From NCBI RefSeq assembly GCF_041886205.1, contig NZ_CP169029.1: a stretch of 64,000 bases of DNA; one strand, 5' to 3'. The stretch comes from Escherichia coli (GTDB lineage: Bacteria > Pseudomonadota > Gammaproteobacteria > Enterobacterales > Enterobacteriaceae). Shown piece by piece: positions 34,906 to 45,066 of this stretch. A model generated the notes under the pieces. That model was not told the origin of the DNA. It was given only the letters and a program-made list of their open reading frames with translations, and did no database searches. Position numbers and translations under genes: made by a program. Each line of letters begins with the position of its first letter. Position 1 is the stretch's first letter.

Positions 34906-35282
34906 TCCTGTTCTTTAACTCTTAACGTAAAAACCGCTTCGGCGGCAATGCCGATCAGTTAAGGAGCGGTTGACTGATCCTTAAACTGCGGCACTATAAC
35001 GGCTTCCACTCCAGGGAGCCGTTTTCTTATGCCACTTCTCAATGATCTGTTCGCCGCATGAGCCTCAGCGCTGATGGCGAGGTCGGAGAAAAGGTCCTGT
35101 CGCGCAATGCCATTACTCAGGCCCGGCGACGGGTGGCACCGCGCCTCTGGAATGGCTCTTTCATCAGACGGCACAGATCCGGGGAGCAGAACATTACCCC
35201 AAAGATAGCTGGCGTGTATTACAGCCCTTTGTCGTGCACGGGGGACACCGGATAGCAGGAAGTCTGGGGTATATTGCTGGCC

Positions 35283-35370
35283 TACAATCTGATACGACGG
35301 AAAGCTACAAAGGCAGTAGAAAAGCATAAAAGAGTGCTGAAAGAAATCAGCTTCAAATTTGCCGTATCAG
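35283..35370. repeat. Direct repeat copy A flanking the PTS/porin module
   Basis: CTGATACGACGGAAAGCTACAAAGGCAGTAGAAAAGCATAAAAGAGTGCTGAAAGAAATCAGCTTCAAATTTGCCGTATCAG; similar copy at 41469-41554. Confidence 0.6.
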
Positions 35371-35566
35371 AAAGTAGATGAAATCAGACATTATCTAATA
35401 TTATATTTTGGTTAAAATAGATATCAGAATTTAGCTATCCAATCGGTTTAATAAAATGAACCCGATTAAGATTGCTATGTGCTGAATGTATTTCATTTAA
35501 ATATAAATTAAAAAGTCGCCAGCAAGCTTATTTAACAGAACCGATAAAATAAAAAATGATATAAAT

Positions 35567-36613
35567 TTAGAACCAAAATTCAAGACCGGCGCGGTAAAAA
35601 TAGTCATTACTTTCTGAATTATAGGCGTCAGTTCGACCAATACGGACATAAGGGAGAAAACCATTTTCCATATTCATCATTAACTGTAAAGACGTCACTT
35701 TATCGGCGGTGTCTTTCTGGGTGACATTGTCTATTTTATAATCATTATTTTTGGCATACCCTAGCTTAGCACCATAGATACCATGCCAGTATTCGCCAAT
35801 TAAACTATAGGCATCCTGGGTGCTTTTAACATGGGTAATAAGGTCGGTCGTTTGACCATTTTTATAGCCCGCGTAAAACCTCAGACCAAGATCTGTAATG
35901 GGTATCTCGAGGCCCAAAACATAACCAGAGGCATCCTCCAGATTGTCATTTAACGTGTCATCGGTCGGTTGAACTGATTTGTTGCGAGTTTCTTCATAAG
36001 CAACATGTACTTTCACTGTAGAGAACGGCGTCCAGGTTACCCGTGAGCTGTAAGTCGTCGATCCAGAAACCGTAGAATCATCGCGATTAACGCTGAGAAC
36101 CACATCAAATCCCCCATAGTCTTTTGTTGCAAGGCTACCGTCATAGCGCACCATATTCGACATGCGATTGCTTTGATGCCAATGAACGTCACCTCCCCAG
36201 TCAAAAACGCGACCGAGACCGGGGTTGGTATAAGGCCAGTCAATGATTTCGTATAACGCCCCCTTCATGCGGCCAAAGCGAAGTTTCCCATACTTACCTT
36301 CAAACCCCACAAAGGTATCAAACTTTCCCAGACCAGAGTCGTTGGCCTCATAACCAACATAACCACTTTCAATCTGGAATATAACATTTACACCTTCAGT
36401 TATTTCTTTGTTCCCGCGAAAACCAATATATGATTCGTTATCGAGAGTATAATCATAATTCCTTTCATTGGCCTGAGTGGTAAAAATGGACATGGCTAAT
36501 TTACCATAGATTTCCAGGTTAAAATCTTTTGGCCCTCCCACTTGCATTGCATTTACTATTGTAGGCATAGTCGTAAGCAAAGAAATGCAAATAATATTAC
36601 TTGTTTTATCCAT
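35567..36613 (-). CDS. Outer-membrane porin (OmpC/OmpF-type general porin family), PTS-associated
   Basis: 348 aa; signal peptide; N-terminal ...LEIYGKL... and C-terminal ...GLEFWF beta-barrel signature ending in Phe. Confidence 0.7.
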   Translation of the reverse strand: MDKTSNIICISLLTTMPTIVNAMQVGGPKDFNLEIYGKLAMSIFTTQANERNYDYTLDNESYIGFRGNKEITEGVNVIFQIESGYVGYEANDSGLGKFDTFVGFEGKYGKLRFGRMKGALYEIIDWPYTNPGLGRVFDWGGDVHWHQSNRMSNMVRYDGSLATKDYGGFDVVLSVNRDDSTVSGSTTYSSRVTWTPFSTVKVHVAYEETRNKSVQPTDDTLNDNLEDASGYVLGLEIPITDLGLRFYAGYKNGQTTDLITHVKSTQDAYSLIGEYWHGIYGAKLGYAKNNDYKIDNVTQKDTADKVTSLQLMMNMENGFLPYVRIGRTDAYNSESNDYFYRAGLEFWF

Positions 36614-36833
36614 AAGTTGCCCCAGTAATTTTATATCCGAAAAGAGTAAAACCCGCCTTCATGGAGGGCTGTATTCATTACGCCATGAAAGGGCGTATTA
36701 AAATCTTTAAAAAGAAGTCTTCTGCCAGTCCTGTGAGATTTAAATCCAAAGGCAATAAGACAGAGCCAAAACCAGTGGATGACCACGCCCATAGAACGTG
36801 GTTTTCAGTTGGCAATAAATATTGAAAATAGAA

Positions 36834-37691
36834 TTATTTAGTTCTATTGATAATGTCCAGTGAAGATATTATTTTCTCCACATTATCTCCCCGATTAATA
36901 AATAATAACGCATTGAATAAAACATCAACCATAAAACTTTGTGCAGCGGTAATCGTTGATGAATCTGACTGATAAGGATTTGACGTCCCACCCGTCAGTA
37001 AGACAACATCAGCGTACTGACTTAATGAGGAATGCTTTAGTTTACTAATAACAATAGTCATCGCCCCTTTCTCTTTCACTCTTCTTAACGCATCGACAAC
37101 ATCGCGCGTTTCACCAGAGTGTGAAATCGCAACCACCACATCCTTTTTCCCAACGTTGTTCGAATTTAAGGTCATGGTATGATTGTCGATCAGAGCATCG
37201 ACGTTTGCCATAATTCTCATGAATCGATATTTGGCATACAGGACGGATATGGCTGACATACCAATGCCGTAGAAATAAACCTGCCCCGCTTTGCTCAGAC
37301 CGTCAGCTGCACGCATTAGGGTCTGTTCCTCTTGCAGGGCAAGCGTTTCATTGATAACAACGTAATTATCATTAGCCAGCTGTTGTGCAATCCCTGTCAT
37401 GGAGTTCGTCTGCTCATCAAGAGAAATCACTTTTGATAACAATGTATCGTCTGTATCTGTTTCCAGGCGAAGAGTCGTCTTTAATTCTGAAAAGCCCTTG
37501 TATCCCAGCTTTTTACAAAACCGAATAATAGACGCCTCACCAACATTCATTGCATCCGCTAATTTTGCAATGCTCATATTGATGAATTGCATACGATTAT
37601 TTTTAATAAACTGGTAAATACGTATTTCAGTCTGGGTCAATTCATTAATTCTGGTGTTAATTAACGTGTTAAAGACGACTCGGGTTTTCAT
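36834..37691 (-). CDS. RpiR/MurR-family transcriptional regulator (HTH + SIS domain)
   Basis: 285 aa, N-terminal HTH (IAKLADAMNVGEASIIRFCKKLGYKGFSELK) and SIS sugar-phosphate binding domain. Confidence 0.8.
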   Translation of the reverse strand: MKTRVVFNTLINTRINELTQTEIRIYQFIKNNRMQFINMSIAKLADAMNVGEASIIRFCKKLGYKGFSELKTTLRLETDTDDTLLSKVISLDEQTNSMTGIAQQLANDNYVVINETLALQEEQTLMRAADGLSKAGQVYFYGIGMSAISVLYAKYRFMRIMANVDALIDNHTMTLNSNNVGKKDVVVAISHSGETRDVVDALRRVKEKGAMTIVISKLKHSSLSQYADVVLLTGGTSNPYQSDSSTITAAQSFMVDVLFNALLFINRGDNVEKIISSLDIINRTK

Positions 37692-37698
37692 TAAGTAC

Positions 37699-38004
37699 TC
37701 ACTCCATCTTTTTATAAACCTCTATCAATTCTGTCACAAGTTCACGGCAAAGCATACCTGTCATAAGGTGATCTTGGGCGTGAACCATCACCAGAGTGAT
37801 TTGCAGTTTACCTACCCCCTCATCCAGACCAATTAGCCGAGTCTGCACCTCGTGTGCCTGCCTGAAGGCATCGTCAGAAACCTTTAAAGAGGCTTCCGCT
37901 TCAGCAAAGCTCCCCGCTTTGGCGAACCTGAGCGCCTCCATGGCACAACTGCGACCTTCGCCAGCGGCGATAATCAGCGACATCACATCATTTTCATAGC
38001 TCAT
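37699..38004 (-). CDS. PTS lactose/cellobiose-family EIIA component
   Basis: 101-aa helical EIIA (ChbA/LacF-like). Confidence 0.8.
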   Translation of the reverse strand: MSYENDVMSLIIAAGEGRSCAMEALRFAKAGSFAEAEASLKVSDDAFRQAHEVQTRLIGLDEGVGKLQITLVMVHAQDHLMTGMLCRELVTELIEVYKKME

Positions 38005-38040
38005 TTAAATTATCTCGTGTTAGGTATCGGTGGATACGAT

Positions 38041-38352
38041 TCATTTTGATGAAATCAGATCAACGGCCTGTTGATACACTTTTTCACCATTCATAGCCCC
38101 ATACAGTAACGGGCTGATGGCCTCTGATTTCTTGCCATTCATTTCTGCCAGCTTTTGTATTTCCGTCAGCTTAAATCGAATCTGAGGCGCAACCAGTACG
38201 ACGTCATAATTCGCGATGACATCTTTCAGAACATCAACGCCGTGAGCTTCAATAACTGATTCATGGCCGACGGAATTGGCGTAATCTTTCATTCGCTTCA
38301 TTAACATTGAGGTAGACATTCCCGCAGCGCACACTAAAAGTATCTTATTCAT
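38041..38352 (-). CDS. PTS lactose/cellobiose-family EIIB component
   Basis: 103 aa, N-terminal MNKILLVCAAGMSTSMLM with active-site Cys. Confidence 0.85.
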   Translation of the reverse strand: MNKILLVCAAGMSTSMLMKRMKDYANSVGHESVIEAHGVDVLKDVIANYDVVLVAPQIRFKLTEIQKLAEMNGKKSEAISPLLYGAMNGEKVYQQAVDLISSK

Positions 38353-38376
38353 AGCAATTACCCGTCATTGATAAAA

Positions 38377-39921
38377 TTATGTCACAGTAATATGTAAACC
38401 ACTCATCCGCCGGAAAGGGGCGGAAATGGAAGTGATCGTAGGACTGCGGCCGTTAAAGCTATAGTGAATATTTTCCATCCAGGTCTTTTCGATTTCAGAC
38501 TTAATTTTATCGAACACCATCGTTTCCTTTTCTTCAAATGAGGAATAGCTCTGGCCAATTGAAGGTAAATATTCAAACTGAACAGGGAAGCGGACTTCGG
38601 TCTGGTAAGCCCAGTCCGATACCAGCCTTTCTTTTAAGAAACGTTCGATAGCGTCAGCATTATCGCCCATGGTCGAAAAGACAAGGTTCGCTATCCCCGT
38701 ACCTAACGAATTACACGTTGTGTTCCAGCCTGCGTAGCCCTTAATGGTATCGAGTGCGCCGGCTTTATCCAGCGCCCGAATAAGTTCAGTTTCACCGCCG
38801 TTTGACATCGCCACATCGATGACTACCACTGACACCTGCAAAGCTCTGCTGGCAATTTCTTTTGCATAGGTCACCAGGTCACGATGGGTGTAGTAAGTGA
38901 TATTTTTATACTTTGGCTTCCGCACACCGGTATGCAGGTTATAGCCATAGCTAATATCAAAAGCCTCCTGCATTATCTCACCGCACCCATTGATCGCTAA
39001 AACAGGCAGCGAGGCATCATTATCGACCAACGTTATACCCGACGCGGCTGCATACGAACGCAGTGAGTGTATAAAAGGACGATCTTCATAATTCGGGATA
39101 TAGGTTTTAAACAGTTCGTTTGAATAGAGTGTGGTGGCTATAAAATCCTTTTTCCTCATCGACAAATAGGCTTTGGTCAACAATGTGCATCCAGACTCAT
39201 CGGTGCCAGGATGAACAAACACCCGGTCCTGTACCCCAAGCAGGGATATCTTTTCGTAAATGCGTTCCTGATCCTGCATCGTAAAACCAAATTCCGCGGT
39301 ATCGTCCAGCGGGATTATCAGCTGATCGATAATCTTTTCATCAACGAGTTCTATCGCATTCTCAATGAGCTGCAGATTTTTACTTCTGCGCGACAGCCAG
39401 TCGTCAAAGGAAGCAGAATTAATAGCGGAACGATGTGCAAGCAGATGCGCTTTTTCGTCTTCGCTCAGCCCGACACGCTTCTCTTTGTCAGACAGATAAC
39501 CAACCTGAAAAATTGAATGCCCGATATGTGCATAGTAATCCGGTTCTTCTTCACTGGAATTATATTTTGGCGTACGTAGCACCAGTGAAGATGCATAAAT
39601 CTTAAGTGCCGGATAACTTTCTTTCAGTGTTTTAATTTTATTTAACCTTGCTATAAGCTCAGTTAATTCCATCTGATGAATACGCGCGGGAAAAAGTCCA
39701 CCGTAGAGATACATATCCAGGCTGATAATTAACGCATCGGAATCGGCACAGTGGCTGTTTATAAAGTCATCTACAGCCTGATGTGAAGCTGGTTGTTTTT
39801 TGTATCCTAAAATCTCTTTCGCTGGCATTTTTAACGAAATATTGCTGTCCATCGAGGCCAGAGAAATCAGGAAGTCATAGTTATAAGGTCGGATATCCAG
39901 AGGTATGCTAATTATATTCAT
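38377..39921 (-). CDS. Uncharacterised 514-aa protein inside the PTS operon (possibly DUF4127-like; family assignment tentative)
   Basis: Long ORF between IIC and IIB with 15-25 nt gaps; no signal peptide or TM segments evident; no glycoside hydrolase family 1 or 4 motifs recognised. Confidence 0.6.
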   Translation of the reverse strand: MNIISIPLDIRPYNYDFLISLASMDSNISLKMPAKEILGYKKQPASHQAVDDFINSHCADSDALIISLDMYLYGGLFPARIHQMELTELIARLNKIKTLKESYPALKIYASSLVLRTPKYNSSEEEPDYYAHIGHSIFQVGYLSDKEKRVGLSEDEKAHLLAHRSAINSASFDDWLSRRSKNLQLIENAIELVDEKIIDQLIIPLDDTAEFGFTMQDQERIYEKISLLGVQDRVFVHPGTDESGCTLLTKAYLSMRKKDFIATTLYSNELFKTYIPNYEDRPFIHSLRSYAAASGITLVDNDASLPVLAINGCGEIMQEAFDISYGYNLHTGVRKPKYKNITYYTHRDLVTYAKEIASRALQVSVVVIDVAMSNGGETELIRALDKAGALDTIKGYAGWNTTCNSLGTGIANLVFSTMGDNADAIERFLKERLVSDWAYQTEVRFPVQFEYLPSIGQSYSSFEEKETMVFDKIKSEIEKTWMENIHYSFNGRSPTITSISAPFRRMSGLHITVT

Positions 39922-39936
39922 GTGCTCTTTCTCTGA

Positions 39937-41259
39937 TTATTTCTGTTTATTCATGGCGAAAACAAATGGCAGATAAATGATAACCGACAAGCTGATTAAA
40001 AATACGGATAGCACCGCAGCTCTCCAGTCTCCTCCCGTAGCCAGGAAGGCGCTAATCACTGGTGGCGTTGTCCATGGCACAAGAACATATGTATGGTTAA
40101 TCAAATCCATTGCCGTCGCGGCATAAGCAATCACGATGCTGATAATCGGAGTGAATAAAAATGGTACAATTAGCACCGGGTTGAACATAATTGGCAAACC
40201 AAAAATGATGGGTTCATTTATGTTGAACAACATCCCAGGAGTTGCCAGACGAGTAATCGCACGATGCTCTGATTTTTTCGCTGCAATCCATAAAGCAATC
40301 AGTAAGCCGATTGTCTGGCCTCCGCCGCCCATAAATCCAAAGGCATCGATGAACGGTTTTGTGACGATATGTGGGATTTCAAGGCCAGCCTTAAACGCGG
40401 CAGTATTTTCCTGAATCGCCACCAGCAGGGTTGTCTCAGTAATAGGGTACATGATACTGGCACCATGGATCCCTGCCCACCATAATCCGTTTTGCGTCAA
40501 AAGTAGTCCTATTACTCCGCTCAGACCCTGTAAAATATTTTGCAGCGGAGCCTGAATCATCAGAGTAACGATTTCATGTATGTTTTTGTTGAAGAGACTG
40601 CTTAACGACCATGCAAAGAGACTCAGCAAGGTTAACACCAGGATCATCGGTATTAATACGTTAAAGCTCCTTGATACGGAGGGGGGAACTGAATCAGATA
40701 AAGTAATTTTCAATTTAGATGAGGCCGAAACTTTGCGAAAAAGTTCAGTGGAAATAAGCGCCACAAATATGCCTACAAACATACCAGACGCGCCACTTTC
40801 ATTGCCGCTGATTAGCCCCGAAACCTGAAAAACCTCGCCCGTCGGCGCTGTAACGGGAATGGTGACCGGGAACAAAACAAATAAACATGCCAGTGAGAAG
40901 ATGGCATACGTTATCCCATCCTCGCCATAGCTGTTGGCTAATCGATATGAAATCATCACCGTTGCCAGAAAGGCGAGAATATTCAGCGTTCCGTTATAGA
41001 CGCGGATGCCAATTTCCTGTAGGTGGCGAACCCATGCGCCTTCCAGCCCCAGAAAACCGACTAAACCGGATTCGCCGTTGAGCAATACATTATTTATTAA
41101 TATAAATAGAGACGCAGCAATAATTAAAGGCATGAGCGCGACAAATGATTCCCTCACTGCCGAAAGATGTCGCTGTCCTGAAAAATCGCCCGCCCAATTA
41201 GAGATCTTGTCAATGAAAACAAGACCACTCCCACTTTTAATTTTATTGATGAAATTCAT
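39937..41259 (-). CDS. PTS lactose/cellobiose-family EIIC permease
   Basis: 440-aa polytopic membrane protein, ChbC/CelB-like. Confidence 0.85.
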   Translation of the reverse strand: MNFINKIKSGSGLVFIDKISNWAGDFSGQRHLSAVRESFVALMPLIIAASLFILINNVLLNGESGLVGFLGLEGAWVRHLQEIGIRVYNGTLNILAFLATVMISYRLANSYGEDGITYAIFSLACLFVLFPVTIPVTAPTGEVFQVSGLISGNESGASGMFVGIFVALISTELFRKVSASSKLKITLSDSVPPSVSRSFNVLIPMILVLTLLSLFAWSLSSLFNKNIHEIVTLMIQAPLQNILQGLSGVIGLLLTQNGLWWAGIHGASIMYPITETTLLVAIQENTAAFKAGLEIPHIVTKPFIDAFGFMGGGGQTIGLLIALWIAAKKSEHRAITRLATPGMLFNINEPIIFGLPIMFNPVLIVPFLFTPIISIVIAYAATAMDLINHTYVLVPWTTPPVISAFLATGGDWRAAVLSVFLISLSVIIYLPFVFAMNKQK

Positions 41260-41468
41260 ATAAGAAAATCTCGCGCCCTAGATATTAGTTTCAGCGTATT
41301 TTATTTATCCCCTTTCGTAATACTGTTAGCTTTGTCACAAAACTCCAAAAATTCCAACTAAAATGATACTAAATGGAGTTTTTTTGGTTTTGTAATCTAC
41401 CGTTCTGGAGTCTGGTATTAACAATAAAAGCGGCTTTCGCAGGAGGATAAATCATCAGCATTTGTCCA

Positions 41469-41554
41469 GACAAGCTGATACGACGGGAAGCTATAAAGGT
41501 ACAGAAAAGCATAAAAGAGCGCCGTTAGAAATCAGCTTTAAATTTGCCTTTCAG
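41469..41554. repeat. Direct repeat copy B flanking the PTS/porin module
   Basis: CTGATACGACGGGAAGCTATAAAGGTACAGAAAAGCATAAAAGAGCGCCGTTAGAAATCAGCTTTAAATTTGCCTTTCAG; roughly 80-85% identical to copy A by eye. Confidence 0.6.
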
Positions 41555-41759
41555 TTTATACAACAGAAATGATAGTGCCGGGAAACACGTCGTCGCCGGG
41601 AATGCTCCCAAGAGACTGGAGTATCGGAGGGGAAACCTGGAAGCGCTGTTCATAACAAAACGCCCCGACCGTCAAGGCCGCGGGTGGTGAAGATATCAAA
41701 ACGTCCATGCTGTTCCGCTTAAGTGAACGGCATTGCGCTGCAGTGGGTTTTTTATGCCT

Positions 41760-42584
41760 TCAAAGTAGTAGCGGTAGGGTCGCACTCGCCGTTTGCTGGC
41801 TCACATCGTTGTACTTTTCATCCAGTCCAAACAGCGACGTGGTGAGCAGTTCCACCAACAGCATGACACCAACCTTGGCGTTTAGCGCGCCAGCACTCAA
41901 CGGACCTTCTGGTTTGGCTGCGACCAGTTGAATATCACTCAGCGAAGCCAGCGGACTATGCGGTGTATTACTCAGCGCCAGTATGCGTACACCTTGCTTA
42001 CGCGCCAGTTTAACCACATGCAGCAGATCGCGTGTGGAGCCTGAACTGGATATTGCCACTACCAGCGTGTCTTTGCTTAGCGTTGTAGCGTTCATAGCAG
42101 CACGGTGCATGTCGCTGAACAATTGCGCGGGTTTGCCGAGGCGCAGGAGTTTGTAATGTAAATACTCTCCCAGAATAGCGCTGGCCGCTACGCCATAAAT
42201 TTGTACCGACTGAGCCTGATGCAGCGCCAGAGCGGCTGCTTCCAGTAATGTTCTGTCGAGTAATTTTGCCGTGTCCTGCAGCGCTTGCACGGATTCATTG
42301 ACGACATTGTCAATCTCATCACCGCTGCGCTCTACCAGCTCTCCTTGCCGGAGATCGAGTGCCAGCGCCATCTTAAATTCGTTATAGCCCTTACACCCCA
42401 GCGTACGGCACAGACGTGTGACGCTCGCCTCGCTGGTGTCGCTTTCACGCGCCAGTTCGGTAATCGTCAGGTAGACCACTCTTGCCGGATCGCTAAGCAC
42501 AAACTCTCCCAGCTTCTGTTGAGTTCGACTATATCCATCAACGCTCTGGCGCAATCTCAGCAGTAGGTTTTCATTTTCTGACAT
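41760..42584 (-). CDS. RpiR/MurR-family transcriptional regulator (second copy)
   Basis: 274 aa, HTH + SIS domain; divergent from the EIICB gene. Confidence 0.8.
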   Translation of the reverse strand: MSENENLLLRLRQSVDGYSRTQQKLGEFVLSDPARVVYLTITELARESDTSEASVTRLCRTLGCKGYNEFKMALALDLRQGELVERSGDEIDNVVNESVQALQDTAKLLDRTLLEAAALALHQAQSVQIYGVAASAILGEYLHYKLLRLGKPAQLFSDMHRAAMNATTLSKDTLVVAISSSGSTRDLLHVVKLARKQGVRILALSNTPHSPLASLSDIQLVAAKPEGPLSAGALNAKVGVMLLVELLTTSLFGLDEKYNDVSQQTASATLPLLL

Positions 42585-42749
42585 GCAAAATCCTTAATGC
42601 GTTTCTCTGCCGATAGTGTGGCGGAAAGTAGGGGAGAGATGCTAGTCATTTTAAAAAAGTATGATCGGTGCCCTGGTTTTTGATGGTAATTTTCATTTTT
42701 ATAATTAGTTGTGGTAAAAATTTTCATCAAAGAGCGGGGAGATGAAAAA

Positions 42750-44306
42750 ATGATGCAAATATTTAGCGGCGCTTCGTCAGGCGCATGGTTTGAAAAAGCG
42801 CAGCGGTTCGGCAAATCGTTCATGCTGCCGATTGCGGTATTGCCCGCAGCGGGGTTGTTGTTGGGGATTGGTGGGGCTCTGTCGAATCCCAATACGCTGA
42901 CGGCCTACCCATTCTTGAATGTCGACTGGCTGCAGGCAATTTTCACGATCATGACCAGCGCAGGTTCTATCGTGTTTGCCAACCTGTCGGTGCTTTTTGC
43001 GGTTGGTGTTGCCGTGGGACTGGCGAAAACGGATAAAGGCACGGCGGGCCTTGCGGCATTGCTGGCTTTTCTGGTGATGAATGCCACCATCAATGCTTTG
43101 TTAACGCTCAACGGAACGTTGGCGCACGAAAATCCAGGTGCTGTGGGCCAAGGGATGACGCTGGGCATTCAGACGCTGGAAACGGGCGTTTTTGGCGGGG
43201 TCGTGATTGGTCTGGTCACCTGCGCACTGCATAACCGTTTCAATAAAGTCTCACTCCCTCAGTTTCTTGGCTTTTTCAGTGGTTCGCGTTTTGTACCGAT
43301 TATCAGTTCGCTTGCCGCGATTGTAGTGGGGGTGATCATGACGGTGGTATGGCCGCATTTCCAGAAGCTCATTTTTGGACTGGGCGGTCTGGTGGATGCG
43401 ACGGGCTATCTGGGGACGCTACTGTATGGTTTCATTCTGCGTATGCTTGGCCCACTGGGTTTACACCATATCTTTTATTTGCCGTTCTGGACAACAGCGC
43501 TGGGAGGGAGCGAAATCGTCAACGGTCAACTGGTCGAAGGCACCCAGCGTATTTTCTTTGCCCAACTTGCCGATCCGAATACGCAGCAGTTTTATGCCGG
43601 TACCTCGCGCTTTATGTCCGGGCGCTTTATCACCATGATGTTTGGCCTGCTTGGCGCATGCCTCGCGATGTACCACACGGCAAAACCGGAGAAGAGAAAG
43701 CTTGTCGCCGGACTGCTGTTGTCGGCGGCCCTGACTTCTTTCCTGACGGGCATCACTGAGCCTATTGAGTTCTCCTTCCTGTTTGTGGCTCCGGTGTTAT
43801 ATGTCATTCACGCCTTCTTCGATGGTCTGGCGTTTATGATGGCGCATATTTTACATATCACTATTGGGCAAACCTTTTCGGGTGGACTGATCGATTTCCT
43901 CCTCTTCGGCGTGCTACAGGGGGAAGCGAAAACCAACTGGATGTACGTCCCCTTGGTTGGGGTTCCGTGGTTCTTTCTTTACTACTTCACCTTCCGTTAT
44001 TTGATTAACCGTTTTAACTGGCTGACGCCCGGGCGCGAGAACACAGCCCAGGTGGAGTCCGGTCTGCCTCAGAGCGAACGCGCAGCGGCAGTCATCGCCG
44101 GACTGGGAGGCAAAGAGAATCTGGAAGAGGTGGACTGTTGCGCCACACGCTTACGCGTGACGGTGAAAGAGAGCAGCAAGGTAGATGAAGCTGCGCTGAA
44201 AGCGACCGGAGCGCGTGGCGTAATTATTCGCGGCAACGGTGTTCAGGTGATTTATGGCCCGCATGTCACCATAATTAAAAATGAAGTCGAAGAGATCTTA
44301 TCATGA
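42750..44306 (+). CDS. PTS glucose/N-acetylglucosamine-family EIICB component
   Basis: 518 aa; N-terminal polytopic EIIC, C-terminal EIIB with CATRLR phospho-Cys motif; ATG 42750 with GGGGAG RBS (ORF track starts at GTG 42711). Confidence 0.8.
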
Positions 44307-44995
44307 TGAAAACTGTACTGGATTCCCTGAAAGGTAAACTAATTGTCTCCTGCCAGGCGCTGGAAAATGAACCCCTGCACAGCCCGTTTATTATGTCGCG
44401 TATGGCGCTGGCGGCAGCGCAGGGCGGTGCGGCAGGTATCCGTGCTAACAGCGTGGTAGATATTCGCTCGATCAAAGAGAGCGTCTCCCTGCCGGTAATA
44501 GGGATTATCAAGCGTGATTATCCGGGCTGCGAGGTGTTTATTACGGCCACTTTGCAGGAAGTGGATGAGCTGATGACCGTTGAGCCGGAAATTATTGCTC
44601 TGGATGCGACAGCGCGCCCGCGCCCCGGTGGGCAAATGCTGGAAGAGCTGGTTATGCAAATCCGTGTCCGCTATCCGTCCGTACTGCTGATGGCGGATAT
44701 CGCCACCGTCGATGAGGCGGTAACAGCCGAGCGGCTGGGTTTTGACTGCGTGGGCACCACGCTCTATGGCTATACCGCGGACACTGCCGGGCATGTAATG
44801 GTGGATAACGACTGCGGTTTTTTACGTGAGGTGTTGGCGGCGGTCACAATACCGGTCGTGGCGGAAGGTAATATCGATACCCCGGAACGCGCCGCACGTT
44901 GCCTGGCATTAGGCGCGCATACCGTGGTGGTTGGAGGCGCTATCACGCGTCCGCAGCAGATAACGGCACGATTTGTCGCGGCGATCGCCTCGTAA
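44303..44995 (+). CDS. Putative N-acylmannosamine-6-phosphate 2-epimerase (NanE family)
   Basis: 230 aa, [14 protein letters not shown]... and ...GTTLYGYT... resemble NanE; start overlaps the EIICB stop. Confidence 0.65.
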
Positions 44996-45066
44996 AGCAT
45001 CGATGGGGCATGATACTTTGGCGGGGATCTGCGATAATTAACGTTTATCCCCATATTGAGAGCGCT

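Follow-up and report, generated by a model that had tools for sequence, protein, structure and literature searches.

Between eno and queE of an Escherichia coli strain lies a PTS operon that comes with its own porin; which sugar would such an operon take up, and which of its products would break that sugar down? We analysed the locus within a 64,000-nucleotide stretch of DNA (hereafter the window). Its minus strand (35567–41259) holds six intact co-directional genes in the order EIIC, DUF4127, EIIB, EIIA, RpiR and porin, all six ORFs lying where an earlier note on this DNA had placed them. The gaps of 7–36 nt given there between EIIC and RpiR agree with the ORF coordinates (15, 24, 36 and 7 nt, in that order), with 220 nt between RpiR and porin, and there are 0 frameshifts, every gene being full length against its Vibrio orthologue. 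The six genes as a unit were correctly delimited; left out was a second module in the same accessory DNA (34921–45008), consisting of RpiR2, a Glc-family PTS EIICB and a NanE paralogue (41760–44995, module 2). The features are:

34921–35566, no strand: left junction; K-12 homology stops at 34920; GC 0.44
About 34934–35053, no strand: IS4-family relic at the left junction (IS4 transposase matches)
35284–35363, no strand: left copy of an 80-bp direct repeat (copies 86% identical, E 1e-22)
35567–36613, minus strand: outer-membrane porin, 348 aa, signal-peptide-like N-terminus; Pfam Porin_4, E 1e-18
36614–36833, minus strand: RpiR–porin intergenic region, 220 nt, weak terminator-like hairpin near 36655–36669
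36834–37691, minus strand: MurR/RpiR-family regulator RpiR1 (putative HTH_6 and SIS domains); NCBIfam MurR/RpiR models, E 4e-39
37699–38004, minus strand: lactose/cellobiose-family PTS EIIA; NF007768 121 bits and TIGR00823 110 bits, both below equivalog cut-offs
38041–38352, minus strand: lactose/cellobiose-family PTS EIIB; TIGR00853 E 1e-24, below the curated cut-off
38377–39921, minus strand: DUF4127 protein, 514 aa, WP_001021574.1; PF13552, E 7e-121
39937–41259, minus strand: lactose/cellobiose/chitobiose-family PTS EIIC; TIGR00410 362 bits, cut-off 236
41324–41380, minus strand: control region upstream of EIIC, a palindrome with an adjacent CRP-like site
41324–41339, minus strand: CRP-like site TGTGA-N6-TAACA, adjoining the palindrome
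41341–41380, minus strand: palindrome AACTCCA-N26-TGGAGTT, putative RpiR operator
41470–41745, no strand: right junction of the six-gene module, with a repeat copy and an IS4-family pseudogene
41470–41548, no strand: right copy of the 80-bp direct repeat, 86% identical to the left copy
41475–41722, no strand: IS4-family transposase pseudogene at the right junction
41760–42584, minus strand: second MurR/RpiR regulator (RpiR2), module 2
42750–44306, plus strand: Glc-family PTS EIICB; TIGR02002 593 bits
44306–44995, plus strand: NanE paralogue (ManNAc-6-P 2-epimerase); NF002231 310 bits, cut-off 189

The accessory DNA replaces the eno–queE stretch of K-12, a total of 1.15 kb holding ygcG and the small yqcG, so the window differs from K-12 as the earlier note expected, although by naming ygcG as the sole K-12 gene it overlooked yqcG. 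Comparison of this interval across 5426 complete E. coli genomes confirms that its contents vary by strain: 3924 have the K-12-type content, genomes sampled among the non-K-12-type remainder have a LemA/TPM variant, and the six-gene module occurs in 9 (0.2%), every copy at this locus. That the interval can have any of three contents, and that IS4 relics mark the junctions, agrees with the suggested insertion hotspot but demonstrates it only in part. The GC content of the module is low (0.43), and from 41746 onward the DNA is homologous to island-borne copies of module 2. A composite transposon or IS-bounded mobile unit was rejected, the flanks being IS4-family relics and the 86%-identical direct repeat; no intact transposase was found in them (34921–35566 and 41470–41745).

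The transport genes form a complete PTS. By its model score EIIC belongs to the PTS lactose/cellobiose/chitobiose (Lac) family; PF02378 is recorded on its orthologues, and its best PDB match is Bacillus cereus ChbC (3qnq, E 3e-64). EIIB has Cys8 within LLVCAAGMSTS and EIIA a histidine motif, HAQDH (in VHAQDHLMT; family match E 3e-35, below the curated cut-off), and from knowledge of ChbB and ChbA we take this cysteine and histidine to be the active sites. An identity with the chb system proper was rejected on NCBIfam equivalog cut-offs (ChbA 121 against 148 bits, NF007796 64 against 157), as was a ChbC orthology of EIIC (237 against 760 bits). No GH1 or GH4 6-phospho-β-glycosidase is found among the six products (NCBIfam models, plus Pfam for DUF4127 and the porin), in line with the earlier failure to recognize a phospho-β-glucosidase.

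Outer-membrane passage would fall to the porin, previously described as OmpC-type. That identity (OmpC/OmpF, Porin_1) is rejected: the sole Pfam match is Porin_4, and the best solved relatives are structures of the Vibrio chitoporin VhChiP (5mdq and 7eqm; E 6e-35, 35% identity over 290 aa), followed by Neisseria PorB. The constriction-loop motif DWPxxNPGLGxVxDWGG is kept between the porin and VhChiP. Judged on these matches the porin is a relative of Vibrio chitoporin ChiP, and the bulky oligosaccharide suggested earlier would be a plausible cargo. Its place in the operon stands up, since the same six genes occur in the same order in Vibrio and in a non-Escherichia enterobacterium (L091), with a less complete version in Pantoea haifensis, and a porin gene at the module end is conserved in all three. 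Relatives have a far shorter RpiR–porin gap (53 nt in L091), and the operator palindrome was not found in the 220-nt intergenic region of the window.

RpiR1 is assigned to the MurR/RpiR family by E-values rather than by a passed cut-off, its match covering residues 10–281 with a best score of 134 against 378 bits, far under every NCBIfam curated cut-off. In the PDB it is related to phosphosugar regulators of the RpiR/MurR type (4ivn among them), and PF01418 and PF01380 are recorded for its orthologues. It is probably the operon repressor, sensing a sugar phosphate. The 64-kb window has a single copy of the palindrome (0 expected by chance), and across 97 loci the sequence is confined to the region upstream of EIIC in RpiR-bearing Gram-negative modules; it is probably the RpiR operator, next to which the CRP-like site would be a second, putative binding site.

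The 514-aa protein, called unknown in the earlier note, does have a named Pfam family, DUF4127, itself uncharacterized; the alignment runs from residue 3 to 505 against model positions 1–482 of 489. The family comprises 2671 clusters at 50% identity in Firmicutes, Actinobacteria, Bacteroidota, cyanobacteria and Gammaproteobacteria, and we found no paper on it in the full-text literature searched. A confident structure model (pLDDT 94) returned no full-length structural relative, and neither sequence nor full-length fold matched a CAZy family. Many aspartates and glutamates are invariant, a catalytic role being assignable to none; no lysine is invariant, and the invariant arginines are kept in secreted members too. 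Many members carry signal peptides, and fusions join DUF4127 to NanE (P0132), to ROK kinases (several of which score best against BglK), to esterases and to a GHL10 glycosyl-hydrolase-like domain. The family looks hydrolase-like because of these signal peptides and the esterase and GHL10 fusions.

Gene neighbourhoods indicate what such an enzyme may act on. Our census covered 82 DUF4127 loci, drawn from several phyla; 36 of them have NanE (PF04131) at most 7 kb away. A Lac-family EIIC is present in 23 loci, never together with a ROK kinase or an ABC transporter; a ROK kinase is present in 29, with an ABC transporter in 25 of these, so that the Lac-family EIIC and the ABC–ROK pair substitute for each other. 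The loci also hold SASA, GDSL and CE7 esterases and, in some cases, GFO oxidoreductases of NanOx type, and the family is further associated with GH38, SusCD and GHL10. Cronobacter has the order eno–EIIC–DUF4127–NanE–ygcG–queE, that is, in the same interval as here. NanE-linked clusters in other phyla and this Cronobacter operon therefore make the 514-aa protein the likely, and sole candidate, catabolic enzyme of the operon, and their context points to N-acetylmannosamine (ManNAc) breakdown rather than to generic β-glucosides. No NanA, NanT or NanQ homologue was detected in any DUF4127 locus (E ≤ 1e-3), for which reason we place DUF4127 in the ManNAc-producing slot; the window likewise has no NanA lyase or sialic acid transporter between 34900 and 45100.

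The required epimerase is encoded in the module adjoining the six-gene operon, 3 kb away. This NanE paralogue is 74% identical to NanE of the Cronobacter operon, 55–59% identical to the NanE that accompanies DUF4127 in Vibrio and Firmicutes and only 38% identical to K-12 NanE; on these identities it is a member of the DUF4127-associated subfamily. Module 2 EIICB, probably a monosaccharide (ManNAc-type) permease, is 70.6% identical to an Anaerosalibacter protein near DUF4127, and the PTS-Glc, NanE and RpiR trio sits beside DUF4127 clusters in Priestia (on a plasmid), Anaerosalibacter and Shouchella. Genomic context thus functionally links the adjoining RpiR–PTS–NanE module to DUF4127 clusters in other phyla.

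We propose that DUF4127 is a hydrolase-type enzyme releasing ManNAc-6-phosphate (ManNAc-6-P) from the PTS product. The chitoporin-like channel would pass the sugar through the outer membrane, the complete lactose/chitobiose-family PTS (EIIC, EIIB and EIIA) would import and phosphorylate it, DUF4127 would split the phosphorylated sugar to free ManNAc-6-P, and the NanE paralogue would epimerize this to GlcNAc-6-P, which the housekeeping NagA/NagB route would take over. RpiR would repress at the palindrome until sugar phosphate builds up, the CRP-like site adding catabolite control. We give this porin–PTS–DUF4127–NanE pathway, and jointly with it the six genes as one horizontally acquired catabolic unit acting with the NanE module, a probability of about 0.5; the reaction catalysed, the substrate, the regulator's sites and its effector are inferred. 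The 35% identity of the porin to Vibrio chitoporin, and ChbC as the best solved relative of EIIC, speak for a HexNAc disaccharide; the substrate is probably a β-linked one with ManNAc at its non-reducing end, such as ManNAc-β1,4-GlcNAc. Tentatively, and with the odds against so specific a claim, DUF4127 may found an undescribed family of (6-phospho-)β-N-acetylmannosaminidases for this disaccharide and related ManNAc glycosides, an activity for which we found no enzyme in the searchable literature. Such a scheme resembles cellobiose/β-glucoside routes, in which a PTS, or an ABC transporter with a ROK kinase (BglK), yields a 6′-phospho-disaccharide for a dedicated splitting enzyme; theirs is a 6-phospho-β-glucosidase, whereas that of the module is not GH1 or GH4 and its context implies ManNAc, not glucose.

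MurNAc recycling offers another template. There, MurP (a PTS) or MurK (a kinase) feeds the etherase MurQ under MurR, of the RpiR family. DUF4127 loci are alike in phosphorylation by PTS or kinase, with the same displacement of one by the other, in a single dedicated enzyme leading to a common HexNAc-6-P and in RpiR/MurR control; they differ in that MurQ is a SIS-domain etherase producing GlcNAc-6-P, whereas DUF4127 context implies ManNAc-6-P, needing NanE, and in that the MurNAc PTS is of the Glc family and that of the module of the Lac family. Following the MurP/MurK-to-MurQ pattern, a PTS or ROK kinase could make Z-6-P from a modified ManNAc monosaccharide, and DUF4127 could strip its non-sugar substituent, yielding ManNAc-6-P and a leaving group (ether, ketal, phosphodiester or acyl, for instance). 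This is unlikely, even if minimal operons (EIIC–DUF4127–NanE, or NanE–ABC–DUF4127 with ROK) require no second-sugar pathway, the regulators and the PTS-versus-kinase displacement recall MurNAc catabolism, PTS-linked and ABC-linked DUF4127 enzymes show no differences and the invariant arginines, shared by secreted members, suggest an intrinsically anionic substrate. The kinship of the porin with chitoporin and of EIIC with ChbC hints at a disaccharide, the GH38, SusCD and GHL10 associations suggest oligosaccharides, and a natural candidate compound is lacking.

Could DUF4127 instead replace NanA, as a lyase that cleaves a sialic or other nonulosonic acid, or in PTS systems its 9-phosphate, to ManNAc(-6-P) and pyruvate? 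DUF4127 loci do resemble nan operons without NanA, and those with RpiR-type NanR in Vibrio and Firmicutes share NanE, NanK-type ROK kinases, O-acetyl esterases (here SASA, GDSL and CE7) and RpiR regulators; the NanOx-type oxidoreductases fit too. Unlike nan clusters, however, DUF4127 loci are without NanA, NanT and NanQ, use a Lac-family PTS or a CUT1-type ABC transporter for uptake and have a NanE of a separate subfamily (38% identity with that of E. coli). We know of no Lac-family PTS that takes acidic nine-carbon sugars, the porin is chitoporin-like, secretion of family members would not suit an aldolase, no lysine is invariant, the links to GH38 and GHL10 speak for neutral glycans, and E. 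coli already has nanATEK, all of which makes a lyase distinctly unlikely.

Whatever its biochemistry, the module might be a decaying passenger without current function in E. coli. It is broken by an IS in 5 of 9 E. coli carriers; among 11 genomes with the eno–queE insert, IS1 lies in EIIC in three, ISEc52 in DUF4127 in two, and a deletion runs from 35520 into the PTS EIICB gene in two, beside the IS4 relics at the flanks. Yet in the window, and in 4 genomes, none of the six genes is disrupted or shortened, and all six are under strong purifying selection, with dN/dS of 0.05–0.12 since the split from the L091 copy, which renders a functionless passenger quite improbable.

It is highly doubtful that this is an ordinary chitobiose/cellobiose-type PTS operon in which DUF4127 is accessory or regulatory and the proximity of NanE in E. 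coli coincidental. Among named NCBIfam models, EIIC, EIIA and EIIB do match chitobiose, cellobiose and lactose systems best, the porin is chitoporin-like, and L091 has no NanE near the module. The chb operon (chbBCARFG) with ChiP is also alike in its Lac/chitobiose-family EIIC, EIIB and EIIA, own regulator, own outer-membrane channel and catabolite control. But all equivalog scores fall far under their cut-offs (as for ChbC), the phosphorylated product would be a dead end without a GH1, GH4 or ChbG-type enzyme, and the DUF4127–NanE link recurs across phyla and in fusion proteins. In place of the GH4 enzyme ChbF and the deacetylase ChbG, the module has DUF4127; its regulator is RpiR-type rather than AraC-type, and its downstream enzyme is NanE. 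The porin, which the operon itself encodes, belongs to the trimeric type of Vibrio ChiP, unlike the OprD-type ChiP of E. coli. That DUF4127 is the sugar kinase of the pathway is barely credible, Lac-family EIIC (23 loci) never accompanying ROK (29 loci) and DUF4127–ROK fusions being known.

Within E. coli biology the finding is of minor weight, the module being a rare accessory island that is often inactivated. For DUF4127, a sizeable family without an assigned function, it provides a place upstream of NanE that is not interchangeable with a kinase or transporter, in a pathway that appears undescribed and that would bring ManNAc into amino-sugar metabolism without NanA. ManNAc-β1,4-GlcNAc and its related ManNAc glycosides comprise, among others, the disaccharide conserved as the linkage unit in wall teichoic acids and the repeating unit that many secondary cell-wall polymers have in Gram-positive bacteria. 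If DUF4127 is such an N-acetylmannosaminidase, E. coli and Vibrio would use the module to scavenge cell-wall debris from Gram-positive bacteria, and Firmicutes and cyanobacteria would use their versions to turn over wall polymers of their own. The intact copy in a few E. coli strains, with its porin, regulator and putative operator, is small and amenable to genetics, which suits it to a search for the substrate.

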